Below are positions 13,301 to 27,744 of a stretch of DNA of 52,972 nucleotides, piece after piece. Each line of letters begins with the position of its first letter. Positions within the stretch are counted from its first letter, which is position 1. This DNA is from a virus (lineage: Duplodnaviria; Caudoviricetes), in IMG/VR virus record IMGVR_UViG_3300013014_000039, positions 1-52,972 of that record, one strand, 5' to 3'. Under the pieces are notes generated by a model. The model searched no databases. It saw only the letters and a program-made list of their open reading frames with translations, and was not told where the DNA came from. The position numbers and the translations under genes are program-made.

Positions 13301-14872
13301 GAAAGCCTAGACGAACAAGAGCGTTACTACCGTGATCTGGCTGATTATGTCGAGATGGGTGGTCGCGTTTCTTATCTGCAAGGCGTTGCCGCTAGAGGTG
13401 CGCTAGATGAACTTATTAAAGAAGTCGGTCGTTCTGGCATTCTCAAGAAGAAAGACCAAGTAGATAAATTCATCGACATCTATAACGACATGTTTGAATT
13501 GTCCAGCCGTGTAGCGGCCTATAGATTGATCAAGGATGAGTACTACAACCAGAACTTGAAGAACAAGATGAATCCCTCAGAGGCAAAAGAAGACGCAAGG
13601 ATTCGTGCCGTTGAGTATGCTAAGAACCTTGCCAACTTCGAGCAGATCGGTCGTTGGGGTAAACAGGCTGGTGCGCTATTCATGTTCTTCCGTCCTGCCG
13701 CTACTGGTGCTGTCCGTGCTATCGAGGCGCTGGCTCCTGCATTTAGTTTTAATGAAGAGCAGTTCCGCAAGGAAGCTGAAGCTGAAGGTCGCACTAAAGC
13801 GCAGATTGACCAAGCTGTCGAGATTATGAATGAGCGTCAGTACGCTGCACGTCGCATGATGGCTACTATGGCTGGCATCGGTGTGGCGTTCTACATGATG
13901 GCTCTGATGATGGCTGGTGACGATGACCAAGGTCGCAACCGTATCGCTACAGATGATATGGCGCGTTGGACTCGCTACGCTAGATTCTTCATCCCAGGAA
14001 TTGAGAACCCAATCCAGTTGCCTTGGGGCTTCGGGCCTGGTGCTTTTGCATCTGCTGGCTCTCAGATTGCGGCTCTATCCACTGGGCGTGTGTCTATTGC
14101 TGAAGCATTCTCTAACATCATGACTGTCGGTATGGACTCGTTCTTGCCGCTGCCAATCTCGCGCATCAGTCCAATAGAAAACTTCCCTGCATGGGCTATG
14201 GACTCAGTAACTCCATCTGCATTCCGTCCGTTCTTTGAGTACGTGATGAACATGGATGGTTTGGGTCGTGAGATTTACAACAATCGTCAGACACGCTTTG
14301 GTGATGCATACACAGGTGGTGACAACATCCCTGAAGCCTATAAGATGGCGGCTCGTATGCTGTTTAAAGCAACTGATGGTGCAGTTGACTGGAGTCCAAA
14401 CACCATGTACTTCTTCGCTAATAACTATGCTGATGGTGCGGCAAAGATGGCTACGGCAGTTACTAACCTTGGACTAACAGTAGCAGGTCAAAAAGGGTTT
14501 GACCCAAAGAACGATATACCGTTTATTGGTAGTTTTATCGGCACTAAGTCAAACATAGATGCCCGCGAGTTCAGCAAAGTTGAAGAGCAAATCAAAGGGT
14601 TTGATAAACGCATCAACGCGCTAAAGGACAAACCAGAGTTGTTAAGTAGTTACTTAGACTCACACCAAGACGAGTATGCTGCGGTTCAGTTTTACAATCA
14701 TCAAGTCAACGGTCAACTAAGACAGTTACGTGCGGCTGCTAATCAGATCAGAGCTAGCGATGAGTTGACTCCACGTGAACGCAAACTCCAGTTAGAAGAA
14801 ATAAATGGCATGTCAAACATTGTCAAACGTCAACTACTGGATATGTTTGCGGAGATGGGTATCAAGCCTTAA
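7331..14872 (+). CDS. Large polyvalent internal virion protein (zincin HExxH domain, LPD38-like C-terminus)
   Basis: 2513 aa, LLHELTHAAT motif near nt 10400, C-terminal region resembling LPD38 (NFVRD, FELSSRVAAY, QLPWGFG, GREIY), last gene of the virion module. Confidence 0.7.
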   Translation: MATYRAKGADGKAYRFDGPPGLSTKEASFFLDQYLNMGGMEPEPAPLAPVEQKGETGFIPSVIRGGRGITSLLGDVAPAMLGKAVGANDYARRQMEEAAAYQKETERLYPAEVASYKDIDSVGKALTYVKESIGEALPSILPSVLTGGLAGVAGRGAQAAAMQAAEQVASRGVVKAMEAGPIQAATLEAIKKQALDAGIKEAQKIGLKYQTAGALAGSAAQNVPDVYQNIYEATGKQDLGAALAFGAFNSALDAITPIALLRKMSKAGVSPEEVAAAWYKRAGKGAVQGFISEGGTEALQEVSSAAAEKFVDKNQQFFSEKNFERFINAGLKGGFGGAGITAATDVAFGKGPTAPPSTETQTQQTQQEVPPGGEITDETTPETPLPPGGKGMAFTGNETLEALPEGFVMPAAPAAATTPNIDAKQADYDNRVKEIAILQSKPSLTEQEAGLLKGRIAKNERIKAEIDAERAALATKAESFGRYGEESTTGGQDAGQPIAQTGGEGASVPGATDTNAPAGGTGGAESTGMVRPGENATGADLGEATQSAPVNYTVADLLASGEADQDVPDFTAPPAATAEAPKQEAPVKKFDLRNRLEEFKKKKQDKLPSKGEGFDPELLELAADAEVDASKYDDEESLIAAIESSLAELDSLKNRISPAVVNAYEAAAAEHNAKFKAKAAGTVTPKFSDLLRENPDAVRIFLSNITGPDITPSALSTKTPEQRQAAIDSAVQKVGEHLDKKRSQSEAVGRQATQLGQDKEATQTLAKADAAMGIRYEDQRKLFPSIGTLPPWESLSRASKNLFGSANVNDTVLEQALALNLVKEQVELEAKGEKAKDAATDAEAIAIGQMYRQAQQERKNQPAGKGSLLPLGILVKLRRGDVKAALEYLRQDAKGIKIGKSKFGRVRYGYTVTEINDDIKDEVPFKIGNVLSLGDFEAYADRYGDSFTVEKRQISNNTPQQQALMANKVFSSLVFKNLAEKLLDIKDFKVNVAFDPKLVFNTIGEYNYRTNTVILGPFGLDEATLLHELTHAATVKLINKYYSDPDSLTKNQREAIKHLEDIASVAKSVITADKYKNAFDNLYEFVAYAMTDLEFQNELHKIQKPSLTKYTNKTAEQDPELVERRERALRGYENLFDTLWGQFVGAIAHLYQLFRPNAKVTKYLVGSENSKDDAAAIQDMREREAWETQVRDGANKKLLADAIERIKAEVINPAAMSFVGRNSASTNTALTEDSGAVRQAKQLIDKYNKKLVVVSEATRNPTGVEKRRGIKRVVGVYQLFDEINKIAAGIGITKLGLTPARLGSMAQKTPTEFSEAKGYEAPRKTKKQKDEELSEQERIDAAMELVEKESRGELTPAEKAAFDQEALYDNPEELAKEAAITKGGEGKPKDITSQLFRKAGVTNLDRIRNTEPGYRGNALMELFMATEDILAAPEGGITKLAGKEGFGDTLPSKGSAKTVQATTPGQQSAEQMTAEAEKNVELKDRTPKVFFKNLFTKKGFQSAVEFFQNDRYLLKVLFDRARMFGLVTAVGENANDVYNAFSRSIGIAVHKYNTEVRSESIAVDKAVEAYAAKLGIPVKEALSKLHLIMQARHEPERRHVKYLLNVPLDDNPTYKIGNEYYAAATIRQNIIDTLTEPTPGLTDEQRTARAQKLRQMLETIVADPKSRLKIKKDKNGKTVPVEAAYFDESNERYNVIAGRSPQEIQAFRDTLDRPEYKAEIDAVSQALRDLNKKTIKLNKEANYWSEPVANFVDFYGFKDYVPFKGRPENRTIDEEFNFDGRRLGGEFTKLQDPFKGRMSESENPILQSLADGASAALNAGRKILPETIVNAIKSGIIKGEFKDTIKFSDRYAGRTTRTDITGPNKIFLYKPDGTIDVWQINGKDMAEAIKRSTKTTNPLINMVDQITSGIGQTHTRYNPAFAPMNFVRDSFTNAGIIGAEFDPVTGGKLLSGMASDVANNGLARALNYSRLYADGKFDEIKRLAGGSKPYESLDEQERYYRDLADYVEMGGRVSYLQGVAARGALDELIKEVGRSGILKKKDQVDKFIDIYNDMFELSSRVAAYRLIKDEYYNQNLKNKMNPSEAKEDARIRAVEYAKNLANFEQIGRWGKQAGALFMFFRPAATGAVRAIEALAPAFSFNEEQFRKEAEAEGRTKAQIDQAVEIMNERQYAARRMMATMAGIGVAFYMMALMMAGDDDQGRNRIATDDMARWTRYARFFIPGIENPIQLPWGFGPGAFASAGSQIAALSTGRVSIAEAFSNIMTVGMDSFLPLPISRISPIENFPAWAMDSVTPSAFRPFFEYVMNMDGLGREIYNNRQTRFGDAYTGGDNIPEAYKMAARMLFKATDGAVDWSPNTMYFFANNYADGAAKMATAVTNLGLTVAGQKGFDPKNDIPFIGSFIGTKSNIDAREFSKVEEQIKGFDKRINALKDKPELLSSYLDSHQDEYAAVQFYNHQVNGQLRQLRAAANQIRASDELTPRERKLQLEEINGMSNIVKRQLLDMFAEMGIKP
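8808..8981 (+). CDS. Overprinted 57-aa protein nested in another frame of the giant gene
   Basis: AGGAGG at 8797-8802 then ATG 8808; product MLDNLSLKQVEKALAYLAQPIQTHPPEGLEELNPQEWFVLERMLQALISEKLHSPLQ looks amphipathic-helical while the host frame is a low-complexity linker. Confidence 0.55.
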   Translation: MLDNLSLKQVEKALAYLAQPIQTHPPEGLEELNPQEWFVLERMLQALISEKLHSPLQ

Positions 14873-15093
14873 CTCATACGCCATGCACGGACACCGAGGA
14901 AACCCTCCTCGGTTGTCGTAAACACTTTCATAACCACACCAGACTTCTTAGCTGTCGTATCGATGATGTACGCCATGTATGCTGGCTTCATCGTAGGCAA
15001 GAAGAAGCTATCCCCCACACTCATTCCAGCGTAGGGGAAGACCCATGTCGGTTCATCGAACGGAGTGTCATTCGGAGACGGCTTCTTGCTCAT
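14869..15093 (-). CDS. Small putative DNA-binding phage protein
   Basis: 74 aa from ATG 15093; FPYAGMSVGDSFF...GVRAWR pattern typical of a widespread small phage family. Confidence 0.6.
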   Translation of the reverse strand: MSKKPSPNDTPFDEPTWVFPYAGMSVGDSFFLPTMKPAYMAYIIDTTAKKSGVVMKVFTTTEEGFLGVRAWRMS

Positions 15094-17953
15094 CTTGGAA
15101 TAAGTGACTGATGTCCATGACGATGCGGTATGCCTGAATGTTTGTTGAACCAAACGCAGACTTCCAGCCACTAGCCATCTGCTTACGGTCTTTGTGCTTC
15201 AAGATGCCCTTGCGAGTTAACTCAGATTCAAACCAAGTCGTGCCTAACTTTACAGTCTTGAGGTACTCTTTCATGGCGGCAGATGAAACCCATATAGTGT
15301 TTTCGTCTACCTCGGCACGGATGTAGAGCGCCTGTTTAGGATCAGCAACTACACGTCCGTCACGGATAACCAAAGTGTTCTGAATGTTCTTGTTGATGAA
15401 GTCACCAAGTACGCTCTCTGCTTTGCTATCGTCTTCTTCCTGCTTGCCGTCAATAATCTTCTCGAAGTCAACTCCAACCACAGCAAAGATACGGTCTAAG
15501 TCAAAATCAGTCAGACCCATGTTGTTGGTGATGTTGCCTGCAACTCTAGTGATAGCAACTAGGTTAGACAGGAAGCGGTACTCTGCGTTCTTGGTGTACT
15601 TCTCACCGACGTTAAGATACTCTTTGGTAGCGCGGCGCTTAACTTCTTCTGTTGTTATTCTAAATAACTCTTGTATGTACAGTGGGCCCGCGTGACCGAA
15701 GTGGGACTTCAACGTCTCAAACATTAACATGCCACGCTCATCTGTCAACTCGTACCCCTCTACGTTAGGGCGTTGGATGATTGGCTCAAGAATACGCATC
15801 TCTTCTGGGTTCGTATCACCTTTGTACTGAGACATTGCATCGCGCAGTCTGGTGTTGGTTGTGATGACCGAGATAAGTTTGGTAATGAACGATGCTTCGC
15901 GCTCTTGGTTAGTAGACGCTTGCATACGTAACTTAGGCTGACCAGATGAGACGTTGTAGGCTACGTGAGACAGAATCTTTCCATCTGTGTTTGACTGTTC
16001 ATCCAGACCAAAAGGCAGGTTCTTACAGGCAATCATGCGAGTAATCAGTGCGTTCTGTGTCGCATCGAACACTGCTAGGTTCTCAGGGTGACCCCAAATA
16101 CTTAGCGCACCATACAGCGCACCAGTCTTACCGAAGCCCGACTTGCCATAGAGAGAAAGTATCACTCCGTTGACATTGGTAAATTCCATCAATGGGCTTG
16201 CAAATCCGCACAGCACAGAAAAGGCGTGCCATTCGTACCCTGGGTCCCCGAACATAGAGATTGACTTCTTCCAATCTTCTAACGTGCCATTCGGCCTGAT
16301 GTTACGAACAATGTTCTTCACTAATGGTGAAGGAGGGCATTGTCTTGTTGTGCCGTCTGCCATGTACTCCGTAGTACCGATAACAAACGAATCGCATTTC
16401 TCTGAAGTCCAACCTTGTTGCATTCTCATAACCTCTGCTTTCTTGATAGTTGTTAAGTATGTTGACCATTTCATGATGTAACTCGCCATCTTGGGTGCGT
16501 TAGACGGTTCAAACTTCAGACCATTACTTAGAAGAATAATCTTGAGTTTGTCGTACAGACCAACGTCTTTTAGTGGAAGAATAAATTCACGCGATTCGTC
16601 TTTTGGAAAGTCGATGCGCATGACCAAGCATTCGCCGTCGTGCGTACTGTAAATACGCTGGATTGGATAAACGTCGAAGGGTGATAGTAGTTCGGGATCG
16701 TCTTGAACTAGTTTGCCTTTTTTGTCTCTTCTTGGGGGAGGGCTGTAGTAGATGCCGCCATTGACTCCTCTGAAGTAGGGCTGGAGGTAGTCGGGGAAGA
16801 AAACTTCTTTGGTATTCGGCTCTTCCCGAACTGATTCCTCTTGATCTTCTGTTTGTCCGCTTGTGCTTCCATTAGGTTCTCCGTCAAGTTGTTCATAAGA
16901 TGTGTGTTGGGCAATCTTGATGACTTTTCCAAGTCCGATAGGCCCAACTTTTCCAAGCCTAGAGCGATGGGGACACCCAACGCATCCGCTTGGGTTTTCT
17001 TTAGCAAAGGCGTCGCAACTGTGAGACCAAGCGGCTTCTCGTTTTGATTGTTCTGCTTTTCGTTCTGTTTCACCCCATGTGTAGTTAGGATGTTCATCTG
17101 ACATTCCATGTATGGCAGTAGCGCCATCACGACACCGAGCGGCGACAGATAGTCCAGCGTACCAGAGTGGCTCTGGGCAATCAGCTTGCTCTTCGAGTAT
17201 GTATTTAATTTGTGCACAACCATTTCCTTCTAGGCTGTCAACTGCAATCTTTTGAAAGTCATATTCAAAGTTGCCATTGAGTTTGTCGTAGATTGCTTGT
17301 GTGTCTTCGTCGAGTCCTTTCTCAACATTACGCAAGTCGAACTTCTCTTCGATCTCGCCCAATGCTGGCGCGAGGCGATCAAAGCTGTAGGTATAAACAT
17401 CCGTCAACATCACAGACGGTGTTGGAGGATCATATCTATAGTTGCTTGTCCCAGGCACGCGCATCAAGCGAGCTGAGTCTGCTGCTACTGCTTGGTCGAT
17501 AAGCAATTCGCGGTCTGTGCAGAGTTGCTTGAACTTCTTAGCGTAGGGCACCCACTTTTCAGCGGGCATCTCCTCATCAAATATCCAGTAAGCATGTATG
17601 CCACCACCCGAATCTATTAAGACAGGTTGGGGCCAGTTGATTTCTTCACAGAAACGTTCTAAGTCTTTTAGTGCCGCTTCCTTTGAAGGGTAGGTGTCTT
17701 TCCCATGCTCAACATCGATGTCAAGGAAAAATGCTTTTACGTATATGCAGTTCTCTTGCTTGCGGCGCAAGCCTTCGTAAGTACCAGGTGTGAAATAAAC
17801 ATTGTGTTGAATATCAATAAATCTTTGTGCAAGTGCAATAGCGTCTCCAACACTAGTTGCAAATTTTGGTTTAATGATTCCTTCTTTGTCTATTCCAGCT
17901 ATACATACGTTACCCTGCGCAGGGAAGATTTTCTCAAAAAATTGTTGGTTCAT
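15068..17953 (-). CDS. Primase-helicase (AEP/RepB-type primase fused to DUF927-like P-loop helicase)
   Basis: FFLDIDV, SGGGIHAYW and RLMRVPGTSN primase motifs, Cys cluster, Walker A GKSGFGKT, Walker B FGLDE. Confidence 0.85.
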   Translation of the reverse strand: MNQQFFEKIFPAQGNVCIAGIDKEGIIKPKFATSVGDAIALAQRFIDIQHNVYFTPGTYEGLRRKQENCIYVKAFFLDIDVEHGKDTYPSKEAALKDLERFCEEINWPQPVLIDSGGGIHAYWIFDEEMPAEKWVPYAKKFKQLCTDRELLIDQAVAADSARLMRVPGTSNYRYDPPTPSVMLTDVYTYSFDRLAPALGEIEEKFDLRNVEKGLDEDTQAIYDKLNGNFEYDFQKIAVDSLEGNGCAQIKYILEEQADCPEPLWYAGLSVAARCRDGATAIHGMSDEHPNYTWGETERKAEQSKREAAWSHSCDAFAKENPSGCVGCPHRSRLGKVGPIGLGKVIKIAQHTSYEQLDGEPNGSTSGQTEDQEESVREEPNTKEVFFPDYLQPYFRGVNGGIYYSPPPRRDKKGKLVQDDPELLSPFDVYPIQRIYSTHDGECLVMRIDFPKDESREFILPLKDVGLYDKLKIILLSNGLKFEPSNAPKMASYIMKWSTYLTTIKKAEVMRMQQGWTSEKCDSFVIGTTEYMADGTTRQCPPSPLVKNIVRNIRPNGTLEDWKKSISMFGDPGYEWHAFSVLCGFASPLMEFTNVNGVILSLYGKSGFGKTGALYGALSIWGHPENLAVFDATQNALITRMIACKNLPFGLDEQSNTDGKILSHVAYNVSSGQPKLRMQASTNQEREASFITKLISVITTNTRLRDAMSQYKGDTNPEEMRILEPIIQRPNVEGYELTDERGMLMFETLKSHFGHAGPLYIQELFRITTEEVKRRATKEYLNVGEKYTKNAEYRFLSNLVAITRVAGNITNNMGLTDFDLDRIFAVVGVDFEKIIDGKQEEDDSKAESVLGDFINKNIQNTLVIRDGRVVADPKQALYIRAEVDENTIWVSSAAMKEYLKTVKLGTTWFESELTRKGILKHKDRKQMASGWKSAFGSTNIQAYRIVMDISHLFQDEQEAVSE

Positions 17954-17966
17954 ATTCGCAGAGACG

Positions 17967-17988
17967 AAAAAGCGGAAGTTACTCCGCT
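17967..17988 (-). terminator. Intrinsic terminator/attenuator upstream of primase-helicase
   Basis: Minus strand AGCGGAG-TAAC-TTCCGCT followed by a T run; second hairpin at 17998-18017. Confidence 0.6.
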
Positions 17989-18019
17989 GTGAAAGATGAA
18001 CTGACCTAAGTCAGTTCGG

Positions 18020-18349
18020 CTATTTGTGATTCGCGGAAGTTATCGGTTTGCCGACCATATCTTTCAAATACGCACGCGCATCACGTAGGTTCTTGCAAGG
18101 CAAGATACCTTTGGCTAAGTCCTCCTCAACTAGTTTGATAAACACTTCTATCTTGGCTCGTTTGGCGTAGCGGATGACCCCGCCCCTGAACCACGAATGG
18201 ATAGTCATCCGTGTGGTGTCGAACACTTGCGCAACGTATGTAGCAGGCAAGCCTGCTTTGATACATGTACTGGCTAAGTCAATGCCTAGCCTGTATGTTT
18301 TAGTGTTCTCTACCGTGTCCAGTAGGTCAGAGCCATATCCTCTAGCCAT
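18020..18349 (-). CDS. HTH DNA-binding protein (XRE/Cro-like)
   Basis: ATYVAQVFDTTRMTIHSWFRGG helix-turn-helix pattern. Confidence 0.65.
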   Translation of the reverse strand: MARGYGSDLLDTVENTKTYRLGIDLASTCIKAGLPATYVAQVFDTTRMTIHSWFRGGVIRYAKRAKIEVFIKLVEEDLAKGILPCKNLRDARAYLKDMVGKPITSANHK

Positions 18350-19197
18350 TACTTCTTAGACCACTTCTTAACAATGTCTGTCACGTCTTCGCTTTTAGCT
18401 GACGCTTTAGCGGTCTTGTTAACAGTTGGTTCAGGCATGGCTTCTTGTGTAGAAGGTTGTGCTTCTTCCTCGTCACCGCCGTCTGTCTTATAGACAGTCA
18501 ACTTGACTGCACTCTCCGCCGCAGTGGACTTGCTTTGGTTAAGAATAGTCTCACGCATCTCAGGAGGGACAGCGCTGCTTGGAGAGAACAACAGACGAGG
18601 CACTGGCGAGTTGATATCAAATTGCATCTTTGTAATGATCTTGCCTGCACTCACGTTGTTGTTAGCAAGCATTTGGATATATGGTCTGAAAGGCCATTTA
18701 CCGCTATCTTCCTTGCCAAACGCGCTAGTTGCTGGAAGCACTAACTGATACACATCTCCTGCGGGATCGTTCGGAAGAACGACAGCAGTGCGCCATGACA
18801 GACGGCACGCAGTGCCTTGACCGCCTTGACCTGAACCCTTTACAGAGTTAGGGCAGTCAGCGCAAGTAAGCGCGGCTGGCGATTTAACCTCTGGGTCAGG
18901 AACCTTAGAGTCGTTAGACCAGCAAGCAGGGGACAACTTAACGCCCTTCTTGTAAGACTGGTTGTAGTAAGTGCGCGATGCTTCGTGAGCCATCTTGACG
19001 ATGATCACGTTCATTGAGTTGTCAGTGTTGACACTCTGCTCTTTACCGCCAACAATCTTGCGGAACACACGCCCCTCAATAGAGATGCGCTTATTGCCTT
19101 TGGTTGCACCGCCTGCTACTGCAAGGGTGTCTGCATCAAGACCCAGTTCAACAAGGCTGTTATCTGAACTGATGATGTTTGCGAGTTCGTTACTCAT
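18349..19197 (-). CDS. Single-stranded DNA-binding/annealing protein
   Basis: 282 aa, CWSND..CADCPNS..CRLS Cys motif, acidic C-terminal region, in replication cluster. Confidence 0.6.
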   Translation of the reverse strand: MSNELANIISSDNSLVELGLDADTLAVAGGATKGNKRISIEGRVFRKIVGGKEQSVNTDNSMNVIIVKMAHEASRTYYNQSYKKGVKLSPACWSNDSKVPDPEVKSPAALTCADCPNSVKGSGQGGQGTACRLSWRTAVVLPNDPAGDVYQLVLPATSAFGKEDSGKWPFRPYIQMLANNNVSAGKIITKMQFDINSPVPRLLFSPSSAVPPEMRETILNQSKSTAAESAVKLTVYKTDGGDEEEAQPSTQEAMPEPTVNKTAKASAKSEDVTDIVKKWSKK

Positions 19198-19210
19198 AAT
19201 ACTGTTTTCC

Positions 19211-19624
19211 TTAAACTGTTAATTCACTAGTTGCTGAAGCCTTACGCACGACAATATCGTACTCACGCAAGGCATTCACGCCTGGGGGCAAGCCATCGCC
19301 TGCTCTTTCGGACATGAATTCTTTGAAGTTCTTTTGATGGATACGACGCTCCAACAAATCAATCGAGCCTTCTTGCTCGACGAACTCTTTAAAATGATCC
19401 CAATCAGTACAAAAGAACCGCTCTTTCACTGTGCGTGTAACAGTGCCGTGTGATGTGCGGAAACCATTCATGTTGGTCTCGTTGCATACAGCGAGCATTG
19501 CGGCTTGTATCTCTTCCATTGCTTCTTTGAGGTCTGAATCTTGGGAGTCGTATTTTGCCTTCAATTCTTCGCGCATTTTACGAATCTCAAGATAATCTTT
19601 TACTAACGCTTCTCCGTCATTCAT
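19211..19624 (-). CDS. Conserved phage replication-module protein
   Basis: 137 aa coiled coil plus DWDHF..LLERRIHQ..LPPGVN motif, next to SSB. Confidence 0.6.
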   Translation of the reverse strand: MNDGEALVKDYLEIRKMREELKAKYDSQDSDLKEAMEEIQAAMLAVCNETNMNGFRTSHGTVTRTVKERFFCTDWDHFKEFVEQEGSIDLLERRIHQKNFKEFMSERAGDGLPPGVNALREYDIVVRKASATSELTV

Positions 19625-21195
19625 AGTTTCTCTCCTTCGAGTTCATCTTTATACAGGTCTACCAATTTTTCGTGTAGGGACACTTTGTTTTGCAACATCG
19701 TGTACATACGCCGCTCCACCTCAGACCCTTGGAGGTGTATTACTGTCATGCTGTTATTCTGTCCGACGCGATCGATACGCGCTATACACTGTAAGTATGT
19801 TTCTACGGACATAACAGGAGACCAAAATATTACTGTGTCAGCCGCAGTTAGGGTTACCCCGTGGGATGCGGCTTGTGGTTGTATCAACAGAACTCTTGGG
19901 TCTGTGTTCTGCTGAAAGTTTTTAAATACATCTGCTCGCTGAAGAGCTGTCACATCACCAGAGATAATCTCATTAGATACACCAGCGGACTCCAAATGCT
20001 TCTGCACTAAAGACAGAGTATGTTTGTAGGGTATAAAGATAAGCACCTTGTGCAGTGCTTCATCCAGCACCTCTTGCAAGACAGACAAGCGCGGTGTTAT
20101 ATCGAACTCAACGACGTTGCCATCATCTGTGTAAACAGCCCCGCCTGACAATTGAAGCAAGCGGGTAAGTGAGGCTGCGGCATTAACTGTGCTGATAGTT
20201 TCGCCTGCGGTTTTAATCTGCATCTCTTTGACGAGATCACGATAGTACTTTGATGCTTGTGGTGACAACGGCACTAAGCGTGTTTGATAGACCACATCAG
20301 GTAGGTCAAGACATTGCGCCTTCTCATAGCGTATAGCGGGTTGCAACGCATCAAACACAGTGACACGCGACTCAGGTTTAGGCGACCACTTGAAGCGCGT
20401 AACTTGACTCATGACCTTATCGCGCCATGCAGTCTTGTAGCGTGGTACACCATCAGGGTTAACTAGTCTTGCAAGACCAAACGCATCTTCAGGTGATTGC
20501 GCGGCAGGTGTGCCAGTCATCATCCACAAGTATGTATCAGGCTTGACTAAGCGTGCTAATGTTTTCCAACGCCTAGTAGCAGTGTTCTTGTATGCGTTGG
20601 CTTCATCAACAATTATCAAATCAAACTTACCTTCAGCAATAGCCTTCTCAACTACACCTACACCGTCATAGTTGATGATGACAAACTGATAGTCACTGCG
20701 AATAATCTTTTCACGTTTAGGTGTAGCACCATGTGCTACGGCACAAGTGCGATGCATTGCAGTCTTGAACAAGTCTGCTTGCCATGCGCTGTGCATGATT
20801 GATAGAGGACAAATCACAAGCGCACGACGTACTTTGCCTTGATTCATCAGGTAATCAGCCGCCCATATAGCCGCAGATGTTTTGCCTGTGCCTGCTTCGT
20901 TGAAACAGAACGCACGACGGTGAACGGATAGAAACCGTGAAGTATCTCTTTGATGATCGAAAGGTTGAAACATCCCAGGCCACTCGTAGTCACGCTCGAT
21001 TGGCGACGGAACCTTGATGCTATTTGGGAATATGCGTGCAAGACGTTGCATCTCGTCAATACCCCAATAAACGATTACGTCTGATACACCATCTGTTGTA
21101 TCAAGCACTTCGCTTTTTTCGATGTAGCACTCAATCATCTTTGCTACTTGTGTAGAGCATTGAATCCTGACTGCACTATTGTTAACTATTTCCAT
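19621..21195 (-). CDS. SNF2-family helicase
   Basis: EAGTGKT, IVDEA, MTGTP, HGVTLTAAD and ARIDRVGQ motifs; ATG 21195 preferred (AAGG upstream). Confidence 0.9.
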   Translation of the reverse strand: MEIVNNSAVRIQCSTQVAKMIECYIEKSEVLDTTDGVSDVIVYWGIDEMQRLARIFPNSIKVPSPIERDYEWPGMFQPFDHQRDTSRFLSVHRRAFCFNEAGTGKTSAAIWAADYLMNQGKVRRALVICPLSIMHSAWQADLFKTAMHRTCAVAHGATPKREKIIRSDYQFVIINYDGVGVVEKAIAEGKFDLIIVDEANAYKNTATRRWKTLARLVKPDTYLWMMTGTPAAQSPEDAFGLARLVNPDGVPRYKTAWRDKVMSQVTRFKWSPKPESRVTVFDALQPAIRYEKAQCLDLPDVVYQTRLVPLSPQASKYYRDLVKEMQIKTAGETISTVNAAASLTRLLQLSGGAVYTDDGNVVEFDITPRLSVLQEVLDEALHKVLIFIPYKHTLSLVQKHLESAGVSNEIISGDVTALQRADVFKNFQQNTDPRVLLIQPQAASHGVTLTAADTVIFWSPVMSVETYLQCIARIDRVGQNNSMTVIHLQGSEVERRMYTMLQNKVSLHEKLVDLYKDELEGEKL

Positions 21196-21207
21196 ACTAC
21201 CTTTCAA

Positions 21208-21338
21208 AACTGTGTCCTCGTCTTTCCGAGGTGTCCGTTAGTCCTGTCGCACTGGAGTACCCATCCGAAGATGTGTCAGAAAGCGTCGTGCCGACTAACT
21301 GATGCGGTTTCTGATTTGCCCACTCACACCTGACAGCG
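21208..21338 (-). ncRNA. Putative structured leader RNA upstream of SNF2 helicase
   Basis: Several complementary helices, C-UUCG-G tetraloop, GAAA-loop hairpin and a crossing helix, right after a promoter. Confidence 0.6.
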
Positions 21339-21346
21339 TATTTAAT

Positions 21347-21374
21347 ATTATGGGGTCTGTTTTTTATTTGTCAA
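21347..21374 (-). promoter_or_regulatory. Sigma70-type promoter
   Basis: TTGACA-16-CATAAT on minus strand. Confidence 0.6.
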
Positions 21375-21682
21375 GTTCTTTTACGTTCTTTTTTGCTAGT
21401 TTCTGATACGAGGTTTCCCTTAGAGTCGCGTTTGAATGAACGATTCTTTGCCGCACTTTCTATGCGTAGTCCATTTTTGTTTGAACCACCCTTATCAAGC
21501 GCGACAACGTGTGCAACATCCTTGCCCTTGCGTTTAGGTGAAGTTTCCATCACCGTACCAGTATCACGCTTGTCGATAGAGCGACGCCCACGCTGACGTT
21601 CCATACGTCGTTCGTGTTCACCACGCTCCTTCTCTTGGTCGTATTCTTTTTTGTATGGTCTAGGTTTGTTTACGTAGGGCAT
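21371..21682 (-). CDS. HNH endonuclease-like protein
   Basis: GKDVAHVVALDKGGSN..LRIESAAKNRS motif. Confidence 0.7.
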   Translation of the reverse strand: MPYVNKPRPYKKEYDQEKERGEHERRMERQRGRRSIDKRDTGTVMETSPKRKGKDVAHVVALDKGGSNKNGLRIESAAKNRSFKRDSKGNLVSETSKKERKRT

Positions 21683-21691
21683 TACCGTTCC

Positions 21692-22345
21692 TTATTTATG
21701 AAATTGGCAAATCTTTACTGGACACCAACCACAAAGAGGAGTCGGGTTTTCTTGCCATGCGCCATTTTCGTACGATAGTCGCAATCGTTCAAGTGTTGGA
21801 TAGAAATCTGTCCACAATGTATCCAAATCTTTTCTATGGTATTCAGTGGGAATGAAGTGTTCATGCACAACAAAGAGCAAGCCTGCCTTCACATGTTGGA
21901 CTTCAGGGTAGTGTGCAAACACCATTAACGCCATGAGTTGTAACTGTTTTAAATCAGGGTACTTATTACTACCCGTCTTATAGTCAACCACAAACGCTGT
22001 GTCACCATTTATTACTACTAAGTCGGCTATGCCACGCACCCAGTATTCACCCCACTTGCATGGCTCTCGGTCAAAGTTGATTGCCATACGCAACTCAGGA
22101 TACTTAGTACCCTCCATCGCTATGAGTGGGTCAAGTTGACGTTGAAATTTCTGATAGTTTGGCAATAGGGGTTTTCCCTCGCCTACATAGTCCTCTACTG
22201 CTTTGTGAACTTCTGTTCCGTAGCGCATCTGTTCAGTAGGGAATTTGGTGTACCTTTTTAGTACCTTTACTTCGTGGTACTGGCGAGGGCAGTTGTCGTA
22301 GTCTTTAAGACCAGAGTAAGACCATTTCACTTCGTGTGTTTGCAT
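21692..22345 (-). CDS. PD-(D/E)XK Cas4-like exonuclease
   Basis: WSYS..CPRQY, GTEVH, RGIADL, VDYKTG, QLQLMA, C-terminal CGWCPVKIC. Confidence 0.85.
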   Translation of the reverse strand: MQTHEVKWSYSGLKDYDNCPRQYHEVKVLKRYTKFPTEQMRYGTEVHKAVEDYVGEGKPLLPNYQKFQRQLDPLIAMEGTKYPELRMAINFDREPCKWGEYWVRGIADLVVINGDTAFVVDYKTGSNKYPDLKQLQLMALMVFAHYPEVQHVKAGLLFVVHEHFIPTEYHRKDLDTLWTDFYPTLERLRLSYENGAWQENPTPLCGWCPVKICQFHK

Positions 22346-22353
22346 GACTGTTT

Positions 22354-23406
22354 TTAAACTGAGAGTTTCGAGGAATGTATATTAGCATCTTCAGGGTAAT
22401 TGCCAATAGCGTAGTCCTTGACTACTTTGCCATTCTCTTCATCCCCAACAAGCATTGGTGCAACCCAACTGCGCTTGCCTGAACGATAGCTCCTCCAGTG
22501 TCCTCTCCTCCAATGTTGTTTTGGAGATGCGTGTGAGCCGTGAGGTACGCTTGGCAATTCTCGCTTCTTGCCTGTTACGGTTATTAGTTTGAATTCAATC
22601 AAAGGGGTCTTACCCTTGCGAATCTTCTTTTGATTGACTTGTATCTCTCTTGGTGTTGGCGCAGACATATATACCTCACCATCATGGAATGTCATCATGT
22701 AGATAGTTTCCATAGCCCTACTTATTACCATTTGCATCTCATTCACATCTAACCAACCAATTTGTGATTGCGGTATTAGTGGTCTTATTTCCAGTACGTG
22801 CGATTCAGGGTTTTCTGATACACAAACGCATATTGTCGCTATGCCTATCTTTCCGTTAGTAGGGTTTTGCACAACTAAATGTACAAGTATGCCCTTTAAG
22901 TCGTCTGCATCTTGTTCTATTACACAAAATACAAATTCATTAATATGACCAGGGGGTACAACTTTTTCATCGCCTGCGCGTACGCCACCTGTAATCATCA
23001 CTATCTTGGGAAAAGGTAAAAGTATTTTTCCTTCTTCTATAAACAAGTCTTCATAGTTGTCGGGCGGGTAAAATGAAGGTTCAAAAATAATCTTAGGGAA
23101 GTTAGTCATCCCATCTATCCAAGCCTCCACTCCACCATCAACACTTTCAATTTTAGATTTGGTTTTATTAATTTTTACAGTGTTTATTTGGTCTCCAATT
23201 ACTCTAAAAGCCTTATCTCTAAACTGCTTATCCATGAATGCATCTCTAACGGTTGGCGCGTGGTATCCAGCCGCAAACCTTCCAAAACTTACAATATGGT
23301 AGTTAATATTTAATTTTTCTCTCTGTATATCAATCGCCTTTTGCCAAGTCTCTTCTGAAACACCGCGAGTTGGAATGATATTGATTTTGTCTTTATGCGT
23401 CGCCAT
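22354..23406 (-). CDS. Hypothetical protein with C-terminal HWRRGHWR motif
   Basis: 350 aa ORF, visibly AT-richer than neighbours, basic motif HASPKQHWRRGHWR. Confidence 0.6.
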   Translation of the reverse strand: MATHKDKINIIPTRGVSEETWQKAIDIQREKLNINYHIVSFGRFAAGYHAPTVRDAFMDKQFRDKAFRVIGDQINTVKINKTKSKIESVDGGVEAWIDGMTNFPKIIFEPSFYPPDNYEDLFIEEGKILLPFPKIVMITGGVRAGDEKVVPPGHINEFVFCVIEQDADDLKGILVHLVVQNPTNGKIGIATICVCVSENPESHVLEIRPLIPQSQIGWLDVNEMQMVISRAMETIYMMTFHDGEVYMSAPTPREIQVNQKKIRKGKTPLIEFKLITVTGKKRELPSVPHGSHASPKQHWRRGHWRSYRSGKRSWVAPMLVGDEENGKVVKDYAIGNYPEDANIHSSKLSV

Positions 23407-25264
23407 AAGTTACTCCTACTTTTGCCTCACACGCGACTGGCAAACCTTGCGCCCAGTCAGGTGCTTTGGACATCACACTTGTTACAAACTCTATTGCATC
23501 ATCAACGTCATCCTCGTCTGCCACAACTACTGCGGCATCGTGAACCGTTAAAGCAACTCTGTACCTATCGTTTATCTCGCACATCTGCGTACCTACGACG
23601 ATACGCGCCAACGCTTGAACTACGTTCTCAACTACTGCGCCACCCCAAATTGAGACTTCACCCTTGCGTGAATCGTAAACAATCTGTGTCTTGTCATCCT
23701 TGGTGACGCGACGCAAGTTAGCGTATCGGATGCGAAAGCCATTGGGTAAGATGATTCCATCTTTGTCGTAGTGAACGCACTCATACTCACCGAACGCGAT
23801 AGGCTTTTTAATCTTGCCATCTATCATGTTCTCCAACATGCGGTCGGCTTCTCTCCAAAGCGCGATGATGCTACTGTTGTTGTCCCGATAGACACCCACG
23901 ATACGCTTGCACTCTTCTTCATCAAGTTTGACGCTTACTGGCTGCGAGGTGGCAAGTGTGTGCTGTAACTTCATAGCCCCAGTGCCGTAGCCAAGACCCA
24001 GAATGCATGTCTTACCCACGAACCGTTCGGTCGGGTCTGCTTTAGTGATTGTTTTCCCATACACATTAGATGCAAATATGGAGTACACATCTTCGCCCTT
24101 GGCAAACTGTTTAACAACATCCTCTTGACCCGCAAGCCAAGCAAGTACCCTCGCTTCAATCTGCGATGAGTCTGAGTTAATCACCATGTAGCCGTCAGGT
24201 GGCACGATGGCTTTCTTCAATGCCTTCTTCTTGGGGTCACGGCTCGGCAGGTTTTGGAAGTTCACCTTGTCAGTACCCGACCAACGCCCTGTGTGTGCGC
24301 CATAGTATTTCAAGGGAATGGGTAACGCGCCTCGATTACGTTTTCCGATATCCATGAAACGCTCTATACGTTTCTCTTCTAAAGTAGACTTCGTACCAAG
24401 ACGAACCGCGCACAGTTGTTGAATAAAGGGGTCATCATTCTCAGTTAGTGCGATGAAGCCTTCATCCTTTTTTGCTAGTGCGGGTATTTGTTTGCCAGTC
24501 GTAACACTTGTTTTGTACGGCACACTTATCCCGAAACCAGTTATTACCTCTGCAAACTTCTTATTGCTAGAGAGTTTCTCCCGCACCTCTTCTTCGTTCG
24601 CGCACTTGAGTTGCTCCATCAAGCCTTGAAGCAGACGGCTCTTCTCTTCTTGTAACTCTGTTAGACGTTCTTGTAACGTTGACTGCTCGAGATACAGAAC
24701 AGGTTCTGTAAACATCTTTATCGTCATGTCAATCAGTTTGAGTTCCTCCTGGGGAAATGAAGGAATCATTAACAGAAATAACTTGTACGTAAGGTCAACG
24801 TCGTTAACGCAGTACTCACCATACAAAGCCAACTCCTCTGGTGTGAAGTCGACTCGTCTTTTGTTGATTGCTTTAACTACCTCGTCGCCTTTGACTCCGA
24901 CGTTGTAGCGCGTAGCGAGTTTAGCGAGTGAACCGCCAACCTCTACGCCATGAAGTGCGCGCGCCATGCAGAGAGTATCTGCAAGTGCCATAGGTTTAAT
25001 TCCGAAATGCCATGCCAGTATTGCACCGTCAAACAGTGTGTTGTGTGCTAGTACGAGACTTTCTTTCCAGTTGAACTGGGCAAGCCACTTACGTGTCGTT
25101 TCACGGTCTCCTGAAAACCAAACTGGAGAACCGTCGTTTACCTGTACAGATACACCGATGACTTCAAACCTAGGGTCACGGATATATTCTTCCGTTGTTT
25201 GTGTTCTGAACCCTAGGTCTTTGTCGGTATAGTACGTTTCGAAATCAAGTGTTATTAGAGACAC
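23393..25264 (-). CDS. polA: DNA polymerase family A with 3'-5' exonuclease
   Basis: ExoI LDFET, HTGRWS, motif A DSSQIEAR, motif B RFVGKTCILGLGYG, motif C TVHDA; GTG 25264 start preferred. Confidence 0.92.
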   Translation of the reverse strand: MSLITLDFETYYTDKDLGFRTQTTEEYIRDPRFEVIGVSVQVNDGSPVWFSGDRETTRKWLAQFNWKESLVLAHNTLFDGAILAWHFGIKPMALADTLCMARALHGVEVGGSLAKLATRYNVGVKGDEVVKAINKRRVDFTPEELALYGEYCVNDVDLTYKLFLLMIPSFPQEELKLIDMTIKMFTEPVLYLEQSTLQERLTELQEEKSRLLQGLMEQLKCANEEEVREKLSSNKKFAEVITGFGISVPYKTSVTTGKQIPALAKKDEGFIALTENDDPFIQQLCAVRLGTKSTLEEKRIERFMDIGKRNRGALPIPLKYYGAHTGRWSGTDKVNFQNLPSRDPKKKALKKAIVPPDGYMVINSDSSQIEARVLAWLAGQEDVVKQFAKGEDVYSIFASNVYGKTITKADPTERFVGKTCILGLGYGTGAMKLQHTLATSQPVSVKLDEEECKRIVGVYRDNNSSIIALWREADRMLENMIDGKIKKPIAFGEYECVHYDKDGIILPNGFRIRYANLRRVTKDDKTQIVYDSRKGEVSIWGGAVVENVVQALARIVVGTQMCEINDRYRVALTVHDAAVVVADEDDVDDAIEFVTSVMSKAPDWAQGLPVACEAKVGVTYGDA

Positions 25265-25757
25265 TAGCAATGGCTCGGTTTATATACCAACGCGCCTTGC
25301 ACAAGTCTTCATGCTTATCGCCCTTGTGGTCTGCGCGTGTGATGTACTTCACCGCATTGCCTAAGTTGTAATCTAACTTCTTCGCTTCAATGAAGTCAAT
25401 AGTTTCGATACCGCCAGTCTTGTAGTGTGGAGGTTCATTGACCATATCAGTGTGATGTTTAGTCACAATGTCCGCACCGCCTTGCATAAGCAGTTTGCCT
25501 GTGACTGGGTGAGTTCGTACCATAGGTAACGTGGCTAGTCTGTCTCTTATCTCAGCGTTAGACCTTACTTTACCCTTGCTGACCTCGAACGCTAGAGTTG
25601 TTAGTGGCACTGAGGATGCTGACTTCCTTGCCGTGTACGTGATGTTGTACACAGTATGTAGTTTCACATCACACGCTTCTGCTACCTCTTTGGGTTTGGC
25701 TCTAGGGTTCTTAGCAATGTAAGCAAGTACTTGTTTTGATTTATTCATTTTTGACAT
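25245..25757 (-). CDS. DUF3310 (T7 gp1.7-like) protein with N-terminal HTH
   Basis: DMVNEPPHY..IETIDFI..GNAVKYITRA..EDLCKARWY; N-terminal AKPKEVAEACDVKLHTVY. Confidence 0.8.
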   Translation of the reverse strand: MSKMNKSKQVLAYIAKNPRAKPKEVAEACDVKLHTVYNITYTARKSASSVPLTTLAFEVSKGKVRSNAEIRDRLATLPMVRTHPVTGKLLMQGGADIVTKHHTDMVNEPPHYKTGGIETIDFIEAKKLDYNLGNAVKYITRADHKGDKHEDLCKARWYINRAIASVSNNT

Positions 25758-25769
25758 TTTGTTTCTCCG

Positions 25770-25988
25770 TTAAAAGGGGGCTTCTTCAATTGGGGTTGAT
25801 GTTTGTGATTTCAAGTTCTTTCTATGTATCCTTTCTAATAGTTTTCCGTCTACGCGCTCGAATGGATTCCAATCGTTCGCGCATACTTTCAAGATGACTC
25901 CTTCGTTCTTCGTCAATTTCCTCTTGCGGGATAAAGACTTCTTTGGTTGTGAATCTATGTTCATTAGCACACTCTCTCCTTCTAACAT
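25770..25988 (-). CDS. Hypothetical protein overlapping the Zn-finger gene (start uncertain)
   Basis: WNPFERVDGKLLERIH...EEAPF; fills the gap 25770-25821 up to the next gene's RBS. Confidence 0.4.
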   Translation of the reverse strand: MLEGESVLMNIDSQPKKSLSRKRKLTKNEGVILKVCANDWNPFERVDGKLLERIHRKNLKSQTSTPIEEAPF

Positions 25989-26055
25989 GCCCGAATGTGG
26001 GCGAGTCTCTTGTTTGTTTTACTGATGACCATGCACTACATACTGGGCATTTCAT
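25822..26055 (-). CDS. Zinc-ribbon protein (NrdR N-terminus / Ogr-like)
   Basis: MKCPVC..VKQTR..RRRECANEHRFTTKE. Confidence 0.7.
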   Translation of the reverse strand: MKCPVCSAWSSVKQTRDSPTFGHVRRRECANEHRFTTKEVFIPQEEIDEERRSHLESMRERLESIRARRRKTIRKDT

Positions 26056-26153
26056 TTATCTTTGCTCAACATGAAAATTGATACGGCAACAATCACTACG
26101 ACTGCGCCCCCGATGACCATTAACATAACTGCCCATGCGATTGTTTCAAGCAT
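26052..26153 (-). CDS. 33-aa single-TM membrane peptide (not in ORF track)
   Basis: SD AGGAG, MLETIAWAVMLMVIGGAVVVIVAVSIFMLSKDK, stop overlaps next ATG. Confidence 0.6.
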   Translation of the reverse strand: MLETIAWAVMLMVIGGAVVVIVAVSIFMLSKDK

Positions 26154-26361
26154 CTTGTTCTCCTATTTCTAAAAGTTTCTCTTCCAGCCTACGAATGCGT
26201 TGGCGGTTGTATTCAACAACGCTCATTGCATACTCAAGCGATTTCTCTGCTTGCATCTTGCATATAGTTGCATCACGCATCTCTATGTCAATGATTTCTT
26301 TTAGCGTTCTTGGTCGCAACATATCTTTAATGAATGCCACTATGGTTTCTCGTTTAGTCAT
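26146..26361 (-). CDS. Hypothetical protein
   Basis: 71 aa, coupled to neighbours, SD AGGAG. Confidence 0.6.
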   Translation of the reverse strand: MTKRETIVAFIKDMLRPRTLKEIIDIEMRDATICKMQAEKSLEYAMSVVEYNRQRIRRLEEKLLEIGEQDA

Positions 26362-26645
26362 GTGTTCAACTCCTTTAATCTTTTCTCCGTTGCTCTGACT
26401 ACGTCAACCCAGTAGTAGAGGTCGGGTAGGTTGAATTTAAGTTCGTTGATGTCTTGTTCAGACAAACCAACCCAAGGTCGCTTGTAGTCTTGTATGTCAT
26501 CGTCTTCTTCAGTCATGGTTTCCTTTGATTTATTAACCCAACACACCCAGTGATAAACAGTTCCAGAGTCATTCCAAAACCTGTCACCCACTTTGAATAG
26601 ACCAAAGCATCGTGGGCATTGATGTGGCTTCAATAAGTCAGTCAT
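26358..26645 (-). CDS. Hypothetical protein (Zn-finger plus WVGL module)
   Basis: CPRC..HWVC, KRPWVGLSEQD, EKRLKELNT; ATGA coupling. Confidence 0.6.
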   Translation of the reverse strand: MTDLLKPHQCPRCFGLFKVGDRFWNDSGTVYHWVCWVNKSKETMTEEDDDIQDYKRPWVGLSEQDINELKFNLPDLYYWVDVVRATEKRLKELNT

Positions 26646-26923
26646 GTGTTCTTATCCATGAGTTTTTCTTGTACTGCGACCAGCAAACTAAATGAATTGT
26701 CTTTATGTTTTACACAAAATTCAAAGCATTCTTCCTTTGTCAAATCAACCCACGGCTTCTCCAACTGAGCAACCCTATCAGACAAGACGCGCACCAACTC
26801 AGTTAGCACAGCAACCTCTGCCATTAGTTGTTCTCTTGATGGTTGCTTCATGTCGCGTATGTACTCTTGCTTGATGCGAGACTCCATCTCTACACGGTTG
26901 AACTCTTCGTCTTCGGGTGTCAT
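26642..26923 (-). CDS. Hypothetical protein (WVxL module)
   Basis: KPWVDLTKEE...QEKLMDKNT; ATGA coupling. Confidence 0.6.
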   Translation of the reverse strand: MTPEDEEFNRVEMESRIKQEYIRDMKQPSREQLMAEVAVLTELVRVLSDRVAQLEKPWVDLTKEECFEFCVKHKDNSFSLLVAVQEKLMDKNT

Positions 26924-27123
26924 GCTTCCCTCGCTTTCATCATTGCGTCTGCCATTTGGTATGCGTTAGTAGCAACATCACTCCAACCTAAGTCCATGCC
27001 GTCGGCAAGTAAGCCAGACAGCAACCCTTGCATAGCCTTAGACGCAAAGTAATCACGCAAGGTCATGCCGTATTGCCCGCTATTCGATACGCTTCGTGGG
27101 AATGCTTTCTCGTTCTCAGTCAT
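26920..27123 (-). CDS. Conserved small phage protein
   Basis: AFP..GMTLRDYFASKAMQG..AYQMADAMMKAR motif. Confidence 0.75.
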   Translation of the reverse strand: MTENEKAFPRSVSNSGQYGMTLRDYFASKAMQGLLSGLLADGMDLGWSDVATNAYQMADAMMKAREA

Positions 27124-27410
27124 AGTTCTGTCTCCTCAATGATTTGTTTAAGATTAAAAACGCTCGTCTCGTCGACCACGATAGCGATACCACCGTTGTT
27201 GACAATCTCTTCTAGATTGGATTGTTGTAGTGCAGTGGGCTTGTTGCCATGCGCCTTGCACTCAATGCCAATGAACTTTCCCTTGTAACAACATACGATG
27301 TCAGGGATACCTGAACGACCAAATCCCCCTGTTGCGGGGAAGAAGACGTACATACCAAGTTTTTGTAGTTCCGCAATAGCCTTGCGTTTAACTCTGCCTT
27401 CGGGTGTCAT
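27120..27410 (-). CDS. VRR-NUC nuclease (Holliday junction resolvase-like)
   Basis: MTPEGRVK..GIPDI..FIGIECKA..PTALQ. Confidence 0.85.
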   Translation of the reverse strand: MTPEGRVKRKAIAELQKLGMYVFFPATGGFGRSGIPDIVCCYKGKFIGIECKAHGNKPTALQQSNLEEIVNNGGIAIVVDETSVFNLKQIIEETEL

Positions 27411-27744
27411 GCTCACCTCCCTTCATCTCTTGTAGAGTTGAGTTGTCTAGTACTAGTATGTATACAGAATCAGATACGCGCCAGCCAGTCTCGTTGAGAC
27501 GCGCATCTTGATTGTTGATATAAACATCTATGGGTGTTACCTCCCAAGGTTGTCTATCGTTGAACGGTATTGTGTGAATCATTGAGAACAATGCTTTTAC
27601 CCTGTCAGGCAATGTGTCCTTGGTGTAGTAGCGATACTCACCCTTGCCTACACAAATGCAATACTCGTCACCTTCTATGAACATAGGAACGCGCAGACTA
27701 TCAAACAGATAACTGTGCATCATGGGTACATAGTTTTCATTCAT
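27388..27744 (-). CDS. Hypothetical protein
   Basis: 118 aa ORF in tightly packed operon. Confidence 0.6.
   Translation of the reverse strand: MNENYVPMMHSYLFDSLRVPMFIEGDEYCICVGKGEYRYYTKDTLPDRVKALFSMIHTIPFNDRQPWEVTPIDVYINNQDARLNETGWRVSDSVYILVLDNSTLQEMKGGEHDTRRQS

Follow-up and report, generated by a model that had tools for sequence, protein, structure and literature searches.

A conserved pseudoknotted RNA at the head of a phage helicase-primase operon, a divergent relative of Proteo-phage-1

Introduction

The window analyzed in this study, the whole of the 52,972-bp IMG/VR virus record IMGVR_UViG_3300013014_000039, carries on its minus strand an RNA element of about 125 nucleotides (nt; 21216..21340) that precedes an SNF2-family helicase gene and consists of a P1/pseudoknot domain, a P3 domain and a hairpin, P4. 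The catalogued RNA most similar to it is Proteo-phage-1 (Rfam RF03044), which is of the Rfam type 'Gene; sRNA' (small RNA) and is said to be a product of a survey of 224 motifs. In Proteo-phage-1, as in the window RNA, a 14- to 15-nt loop holds R-U-W-A-G, one pseudoknot strand and (U)GAGUG, and is followed, in turn, by an AAC(C) tail rich in A, by the strand that completes the pseudoknot and by CAG; both types occur in phages, prophages and Proteobacteria. The form in the window differs from Proteo-phage-1 in having a 6-bp pseudoknot (4-5 bp in the family), a large P3 and the hairpin P4, in lacking the 5' hairpin, and in belonging to a lineage that keeps the RNA at a fixed place ahead of the SNF2 helicase.

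Three functionally characterized RNAs offer further comparisons. The HK022 put RNAs, two stem-loops without a pseudoknot, bring about factor-independent antitermination in cis by acting on RNA polymerase. Like the window RNA, they are structured, lie just past an early phage promoter and precede terminator-like hairpins and a long operon; measured against these general features of put, the window RNA differs in being pseudoknotted, and its stand-alone terminated copies elsewhere misfit a purely cis-acting role. The pseudoknot in the leader of T4 gene 32 is an autoregulatory operator and, like the RNA described here, a pseudoknot of the H type within a phage replication gene's 5' leader. [quoted passage not shown] In its general layout the pistol ribozyme also has a 5' hairpin whose loop forms a pseudoknot of about 6 bp with a strand preceding a further hairpin; however, the window RNA has no Rfam match to pistol and no counterpart of its enclosing helix (formed by the strand after P1 and the 3' end), and the conserved nucleotides differ.

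In PMC10690425, 8,495 RNA candidates from IMG/VR are catalogued and the leader pseudoknot of T4 gene 32 is noted to have no model in Rfam; the words 'helicase' and 'SNF2' are absent from its main text. The main text of PMC5737381, the survey of 224 motifs, does not name Proteo-phage-1. Our literature search found no paper on the window RNA or naming Proteo-phage-1; the supplements of PMC5737381 and PMC10690425 may list either.

Results

Conservation of the leader

A search of viral contigs with the helicase protein yielded 598 candidate stretches encoding relatives, the best 80 of which were kept as loci. The leaders of these helicase relatives share conserved blocks not expected of coding-free spacer DNA. 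In a MAFFT alignment of 46 leader sequences (A1), 89.9% of the pair cells were paired as compared with 69.8% in shuffled alignments, none of 500 shuffles reaching the observed figure, and slid controls gave 30-45%. An alignment of 89 distinct sequences (A4), which was used for the pairing figures of P1, the pseudoknot and P3 in the next section, behaved alike (89.7% versus 65.3%; 0/500 shuffles). A covariance model containing P1 and P3 only (R1), with the pseudoknot helix left out, gave a single match in the window, at 21235-21340 on the minus strand (59.2 bits, E 2.8e-15), to which P4 was added from the sequence. The same model matched 63 of the 80 helicase loci, with one strong match each, and every match lay directly upstream of the helicase.

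An earlier note, made from the window sequence alone, had proposed a functional structured RNA at this place, whether cis-regulator, ribozyme or small RNA, and had named an Rfam scan and covariation among homologues as tests. The covariation is strong and, together with the fixed single copy per locus, supports the proposal; positions 21340-21216 of the window's minus strand encode a genuine conserved structured RNA.

Fold of the RNA

The 5' domain begins with the hairpin P1 (21318..21337), the stem of which (GCU 21337-35 with GGC 21320-18) has 3 bp in the window as compared with about 5 bp in relatives. P1 is paired in 80.4% of cells, and two-sided changes are seen in 5/5 pairs. Its 14-nt loop (21334-21321) reads GUCAGGUGUGAGUG, in which the A, GG and GAGUG positions vary little or not at all; among the alignment columns, G11, G20 and U21 are conserved at 100%, and A10 and A19 at 98%. 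Within this loop lies the 5' strand of the pseudoknot, GGUGUG (21325..21330), which pairs with CGCAUC at 21306-21301; the latter follows the AAAC tail, with which it occupies 21301..21310, and is joined straight to P3 by A21300. The pseudoknot is paired in 96.4% of cells, with two-sided changes in 4/6 pairs, its pair types include GC/AU and CG/UA swaps, and the consensus is a loop GGYRUG pairing with CRYRUC after an invariant AAC(C). Since this helix was not part of the search model, the pairing count is unbiased. The P1 loop and the strand near AAACC form an H-type pseudoknot. Frequent G-U pairs, with GU in 71/89 sequences at one pair and UG in 37/89 at another, identify the minus (gene) strand as the RNA strand.

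Between the two halves of this domain, most relatives carry a variable hairpin, P2, with a G-run/C-run stem. In the window its site is a short linker (21311..21317), and the distance from GAGUG to AACC is 11 nt as compared with 27-58 nt in most relatives; the window RNA is a minimal variant, and its closest kin also lack P2.

The P3 domain (21237..21299) is closed by an outer helix of GUUAGUC (21299-93) with GACUAAC (21243-37), which is paired in 97.4% of cells and compensatory in 7/7 pairs. An asymmetric internal loop, G21292 opposite GACAG (21248-44), separates it from an inner helix, P3b (GCAC 21291-88 with GUGC 21252-49; about 77% paired, with compensatory changes), beyond which the tip is variable. 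Both helices had been listed in the earlier note, as had a CAUC-UUCG-GAUG hairpin (21273-62) and the 3' hairpin CCUCG..CGAGG, and all four are found in the sequence. The UUCG hairpin is indeed present in the window, but it is restricted to the closest kin and falls in the variable region of P3. Two pyrimidine-rich unpaired segments also lie in the interior of P3, namely CUUUC (21283-79) and ACUCC (21258-54); CUCC recurs there in 63% of members (19% in shuffles) and CUUUC in 45% (8% in shuffles).

The 3' hairpin, P4 (21216..21231; CCUCG-GAAAGA-CGAGG), begins 5 nt past P3. It recurs in 83/88 distinct members and is lacking in 5/88, and it falls into four types whose loops are conserved and whose stems covary. 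The distance from P3 is 0-5 nt in almost all members, via a conserved C-G linker (columns 263-264; 81% and 94%). At least four U residues are found in the 8 nt after P4 in 24/88 distinct members; the window is not among them, and because it has no U-tract its P4 is not terminator-like. The P4 loop type of the window recurs with other stems in L213 and L214, there with a U-run following. No further copies of the P4 sequence are present in the window. Two relatives without the RNA (L035 and L032) have a TTGAC-type promoter, a small hairpin, which in L035 is GNRA-capped, and a Shine-Dalgarno sequence about 70 nt 5' of the helicase start (locus positions ~2430-2500). As such RNA-less relatives keep both promoter and hairpin, a P4-like hairpin exists independently of the RNA.

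The earlier note had also called the RNA pseudoknotted. A real pseudoknot does exist, that of 21330-25 with 21306-01, but it had been missed, and the three crossing helices named in its place are unsupported. UCAGAAA/UUUCUGA is reduced to 5-6 pairs without compensation in L232, L248 and L259, whose helicases are 88-98% identical to that of the window, and is rearranged in L002. AGGUGU/ACACCU is likewise uncompensated (e.g., in L020) and competes with the proven pseudoknot and with P4. For GAGU/ACUC, the GAGU is itself invariant, and ACUC is not enriched (18% of members versus 12% in shuffles).

Promoter and helicase start

The TTGACA promoter that had been reported upstream of the RNA is borne out. 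A sigma-70-type promoter lies at 21347..21374 on the minus strand, with the -35 box TTGACA (21374-21369), a 16-nt spacer and the -10 box CATAAT (21352-21347); it agrees with the consensus at 11/12 positions and is the top sigma-70-like match within 14800-34000 (19 kb). Its -35 box overlaps the stop codon of an open reading frame (ORF) of 103 amino acids (aa), and the RNA begins about 10 nt past the -10 box. The promoter block is kept in relatives: a promoter of at least 10/12 is found within 70 nt 5' of the RNA in 29/88 distinct members, and in the remaining members the RNA begins at the stop codon of the 103-aa ORF.

On the other side of the RNA, the mechanical call of the helicase ORF starts at a TTG at 21207. 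Judged from the sequence, the start is most likely the ATG at 21195-21193 behind the Shine-Dalgarno sequence GAAAGG (21205-21200), and ...GGxAGUAUG at the helicase start is common to relatives.

Relation to Rfam family RF03044

The earlier note had been unable to assign the RNA to a family. An Rfam search of the window gave nothing at gathering score and, over 20900-21700, nothing at E<=10; nor did ten diverse lineage members give anything on the motif at E<=10. The absence of a direct match thus stands, yet a distant relative was reached via intermediates. A member of a high-GC metagenome subgroup (L226) scores 54 bits with RF03044 (gathering cut-off 42 bits) and 24 bits with R1, and a second sequence (L253) scores 39.3 and 30.8 bits, respectively. 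True RF03044 members in bacterial genomes score 61.8 bits (L285) and 55.9 bits (L286) with their own model and 12 and 6.2 bits with R1. The two models are thus nearly blind to each other and are joined by the intermediates.

The second hairpin and tail of RF03044 correspond to P1, the pseudoknot and the AAC...CAG of the window RNA. The family has a stem of about 5 bp under a loop of about 15 nt of the form AUaAG...AGUG, and the window shares the invariant U, A and G and the GAGUG on its own stem of 3 bp; it also shares the loop-to-tail pseudoknot with the AAaAAC...CAG tail. A mixed core alignment of 33 sequences, four of them of the RF03044 type (L226, L253, L285 and L286), had 96.1% of its cells paired (P1 stem 92.6%, pseudoknot 99.0%), with the invariant nucleotides in common. 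The 5' hairpin of RF03044 (model positions 7-36, with a GNRA-type loop) is absent from the window, because the 30 nt 5' of P1 hold the promoter together with the terminal part of the 103-aa ORF.

In L285 (1380-1500, minus strand), L286 (1380-1500, minus strand) and L226 (700-820, minus strand), the RNA runs on beyond the point where the Rfam model stops and forms a P3-like helix that contains a CCUC/CUCC segment; the catalogued RF03044 model appears to be truncated. A C-GUAA-G loop is common to the RF03044 5' hairpin and the commonest P4 type (e.g., in L034, L039 and L051). This may be a single hairpin that lies 5' of P1 in one branch but 3' of P3 in another, which would amount to a natural permutation. 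On these alignments and scores, the window RNA is a divergent branch of a superfamily whose only catalogued member is RF03044. Since RF03044 is itself uncharacterized, this reduces the novelty of the window RNA and does not remove it.

Position relative to the helicase

Although the RNA precedes the helicase in most loci of the lineage, it is missing in 17/80, and in the four RNA-less loci inspected (L032, L035, L037 and L038) the gene order is unchanged, which shows the RNA to be dispensable for helicase expression. A pattern scan blind to the helicase gave 28 model-confirmed hits among the 80 loci, with the helicase downstream in 26/28. In L079, L087, L090 and L091, other ORFs or about 400 nt separate the RNA from the helicase. 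The insert of about 400 nt in L090 (5222-5650, plus strand) holds two near-identical long inverted-repeat hairpins and may be a further structured RNA or else a small mobile insert. Within the lineage, therefore, the RNA is tied to the helicase by position and not by mechanism; the conserved unit is the RNA rather than the helicase start site, a portable module and not a helicase-specific operator.

Four metatranscriptome runs gave one contig each at a depth of 2-3, and these contigs carry no information on ends, strand or level, nor is a lack of coverage in them informative. Continuity of at least some RNA, or of contaminating DNA, across the leader/helicase boundary is indicated by two of them (X19 and X22), and the contigs are too thin to decide function.

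Other genomic contexts

Scanning metagenomes for forms without P2 yielded 67 stretches, and 32 of them scored at least 39 bits with R1; 19 of these 32 belong to the helicase lineage and 13 lie elsewhere, the latter including 84-86-nt promoter-RNA-terminator units (L229, L242 and L218). In the L229 group, the RNA follows a gene for a 562-aa replication-type protein and is itself followed by a terminator; there and in the high-GC group it closes a gene string ahead of a terminator. Elsewhere in phages and prophages it neighbours genes of terminase, connector or recombination functions. L285 has the RNA between a 486-aa ORF, judged by eye to be a large terminase, and the next gene, and in L208 a SIMPL-domain gene lies downstream. 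In L109 it is found after a small ORF and before tRNA and Sf6-type terminase genes; this stretch (3132-3680, minus strand) comprises about 300 nt without a clear ORF, a second GUAA-capped hairpin of the P4 type, then the tRNA (57.4 bits) and the small and large terminase.

In bacterial genomes, copies were present in 3/121 and 2/151 of the genomes around one metagenome-assembled genome (MAG) and in 2/121, one of them weak, around another. Stand-alone copies in bacteria lie near integrase fragments or a WYL regulator, and in L213, L214, L215 and L217 the RNA is followed by an intrinsic terminator and convergent genes, with no same-strand ORF downstream. Candidates L204, L205 and L207 (19.6-26.4 bits, after pattern pre-selection) look like coding sequence and were set aside as doubtful; other weak matches were G219 (24.4 bits) and L287/L288. 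A sub-threshold core of the Proteo-phage-1 type (29.7 bits) was also noted in a cultured temperate phage of Pseudomonas aeruginosa (GenBank OQ658367.1; L289, 1897-1974, plus strand), within unannotated sequence close to attR, and could provide a laboratory model.

Gene neighbourhood in the window

The RNA lies in a minus-strand gene run that spans from about 38.8 kb down to 15 kb of the window. In the direction of transcription, this run includes a DNA polymerase A gene (23393-25270), a 350-aa ORF, a PD-(D/E)XK nuclease gene (21692-22345) and the 103-aa ORF (21371-21682), a basic protein of phrog_4590 that lies directly 5' of the RNA. The 163-nt gap holding the RNA separates the 103-aa ORF from the helicase ORF (19621-21207 by the mechanical call), which is followed by a 137-aa ORF (19211-19624), two unassigned ORFs and a DUF927 primase-helicase gene (15068-17953); the same-strand operon from helicase to primase thus runs from 21207 to 15068. 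Where a helicase-SSB-primase operon had been described, the helicase and the primase are present, but the SSB is not shown: the 137-aa ORF matches DUF7307 at 25.3 bits, below the curated cut-off of 27, and its PHROG label is 'minor head protein'. Convergent with the primase gene, in the structural half of the genome, lies a 2,513-aa ORF (7331-14872, plus strand). No tRNA or tmRNA was detected in a scan of the window.

A blastn search with 1.2 kb against cultured phages gave zero matches, and the top matches listed in a tblastn search with the helicase were only 36-38.5% identical; on these identities, a cultured close relative is absent.

The 103-aa ORF has a degenerate HNH-like motif (GKDV-x-H...GG...N...N) without a Pfam match, and its family occurs near the RNA in three gene orders of related replication modules (e.g., L229 436-693, L239 7442-7687 and L218 2203-2457). 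It was not found in 35/42 loci of other contexts, several of which are too short to tell. This mini-HNH-like protein is therefore not put forward as a partner of the RNA.

Discussion

The reading that we tentatively prefer, without considering it established, is that the RNA is an autonomous small RNA, or the scaffold of a ribonucleoprotein, which is taken from the 5' end of the replication-operon transcript and binds a hypothetical factor. The strong sigma-70-type promoter would start a transcript whose first ~125 nt are the RNA, and the polymerase, meeting a P4 without a U-tract, would read on into the genes from helicase to primase. The invariant loop and junction nucleotides would form a surface that binds a conserved factor of host or phage, and the RNA would act either attached to the 5' end of the replication-operon mRNA or released from it. 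This is favoured because the RNA is portable, has several terminated copies without a downstream gene and has many invariant unpaired nucleotides, and we think an autonomous RNA likelier than either a switch responding to a metabolite or a translational operator specific to the helicase.

Several observations weigh against it. Both a discrete small RNA and its binding factor are predictions from sequence, and in the window, where P4 has no U-tract, the 3' end is not defined by termination. Contigs X19 (20979-21268) and X22 (21108-21306) run from the leader on into the helicase ORF. The majority of known instances immediately precede a gene on the same strand, an arrangement that fits a cis-regulator just as well, and a promoter-less sublineage (L040, L074, L076 and L079) has between RNA and helicase a U-run hairpin that looks like an attenuator. 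Moreover, the four stand-alone copies are weak with R1 (27.8-39.7 bits), lie in variable regions and are possibly remnants.

A cis-acting transcription element, in which the nascent RNA alters the polymerase at P4 or a terminator and beyond and so gates entry into the helicase-primase operon, is the foremost alternative, possible if somewhat unlikely. It could act on RNA polymerase itself, as put does, or be an attenuator controlled by a ligand or a protein. The placement of the RNA just past a strong promoter and ahead of a long same-strand operon would suit this, as would the close and conserved spacing of P4 after P3 and the U-runs that follow P4 in a subset of members, including the promoter-less sublineage between 103-aa ORF and helicase; invariant unpaired nucleotides combined with optional peripheral stems are, furthermore, characteristic of RNAs binding a ligand or some conserved machine. 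However, strong terminators facing convergent genes close at least four of the stand-alone copies, which have nothing to regulate, the copies of the L229 and high-GC groups stand at the end of a gene string, and 5/88 members have no P4 at all. An antiterminator pairing of the 3' strand of P3 with P4, such as the mutually exclusive aptamer and platform pairings of a riboswitch would require, was not seen on inspection by eye. The downstream genes (helicase, terminase, connector and SIMPL) have no metabolite theme in common and stand in unrelated contexts, several copies having no downstream gene, and neither the window nor the ten diverse members matched a known aptamer class in Rfam.

Scatter among unrelated gene contexts is the pattern of small self-cleaving ribozymes, and the RNA described here is likewise scattered over unrelated contexts in phages, prophages and variable bacterial regions. 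It is also small and pseudoknotted, with about 20 invariant or near-invariant core nucleotides and dispensable peripheral stems, P2 being absent in the window. As a self-cleaving ribozyme or RNA-processing module, it would cut polycistronic phage transcripts at gene boundaries, with P4 as a protective end hairpin; the RNA frequently lies right against the upstream ORF's stop codon (L040, L109, L229, L222, L227 and L285), and cleavage between P3 and P4 would give the same 5' architecture as in the RNA-less L032 and L035. Against this, no Rfam ribozyme model (hammerhead, twister, twister-sister, pistol, hatchet and hepatitis delta virus (HDV)-like models or cores among them) matched the window or the ten diverse members even at E<=10, the order of the helices is unlike the general layouts of HDV-like or pistol ribozymes, and the 84-86-nt promoter-RNA-terminator units leave nothing obvious to process. 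The RNA-library contigs that cross the P3/P4 boundary point weakly in the same direction, and we regard a processing role as quite improbable.

A translational operator, in which the RNA would sequester the ribosome-binding site of the helicase or bind a replication protein, is highly improbable. The RNA does lie in the 5' leader, 20-40 nt from the Shine-Dalgarno sequence in most lineage members, and its unpaired CUUUC and CUCC are complementary to purine-rich Shine-Dalgarno sequences. Yet, over 79 loci, duplexes between the P3-distal segment and the Shine-Dalgarno sequence had median energies of -7.4 kcal/mol with the locus's own sequence, -7.2 with those of other loci and -6.7 when the segments were shuffled; sequestration by the C/U-rich P3 segments was rejected on the likeness of these values. 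ORFs or ~400 nt are inserted before the helicase in four loci, and many members have no helicase or any downstream gene. Finally, chance helices in a functionless spacer, with which the single-sequence fold of the window RNA would agree (minimum free energy -40.3 kcal/mol, z = -0.70; 43/200 shuffles fold equally well), are refuted by covariation and conservation over more than 100 diverged sequences, at values reached in 0/500 shuffles, and by the R1 matches across loci.

The analysis presented here identifies the window RNA as a new variant of an orphan family known in phages and bacteria. This family goes well beyond what the RF03044 model detects in both size and variety, comprising helicase-lineage, high-GC metagenome and sporadic bacterial copies, and its architecture is fuller, with a pseudoknot proven by covariation, a large P3 that bears a conserved asymmetric loop as well as C/U-rich segments, and a hairpin next to it. 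Its genetic setting in one phage lineage, at the start of a helicase-primase operon directly behind a sigma-70 promoter, is fixed and testable, and the compact 125-nt natural form without P2 lends itself well to assays of cleavage, probing, pull-down and transcription. RNAs that combine a pseudoknot and many invariant unpaired nucleotides with a spread over distant hosts usually have demanding jobs, as argued in PMC5737381. The bolder idea that the P1/pseudoknot/P3/P4 fold is a new class of catalytic or polymerase-directed RNA at the operon boundaries of many phages is, in our estimation, unlikely; such an RNA might either cleave itself as a ribozyme and so define mRNA ends, or reprogram RNA polymerase at the next hairpin in a put-like, factor-independent manner. 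If true, the catalytic or polymerase-directed reading would provide the first function for the orphan Proteo-phage-1 superfamily.

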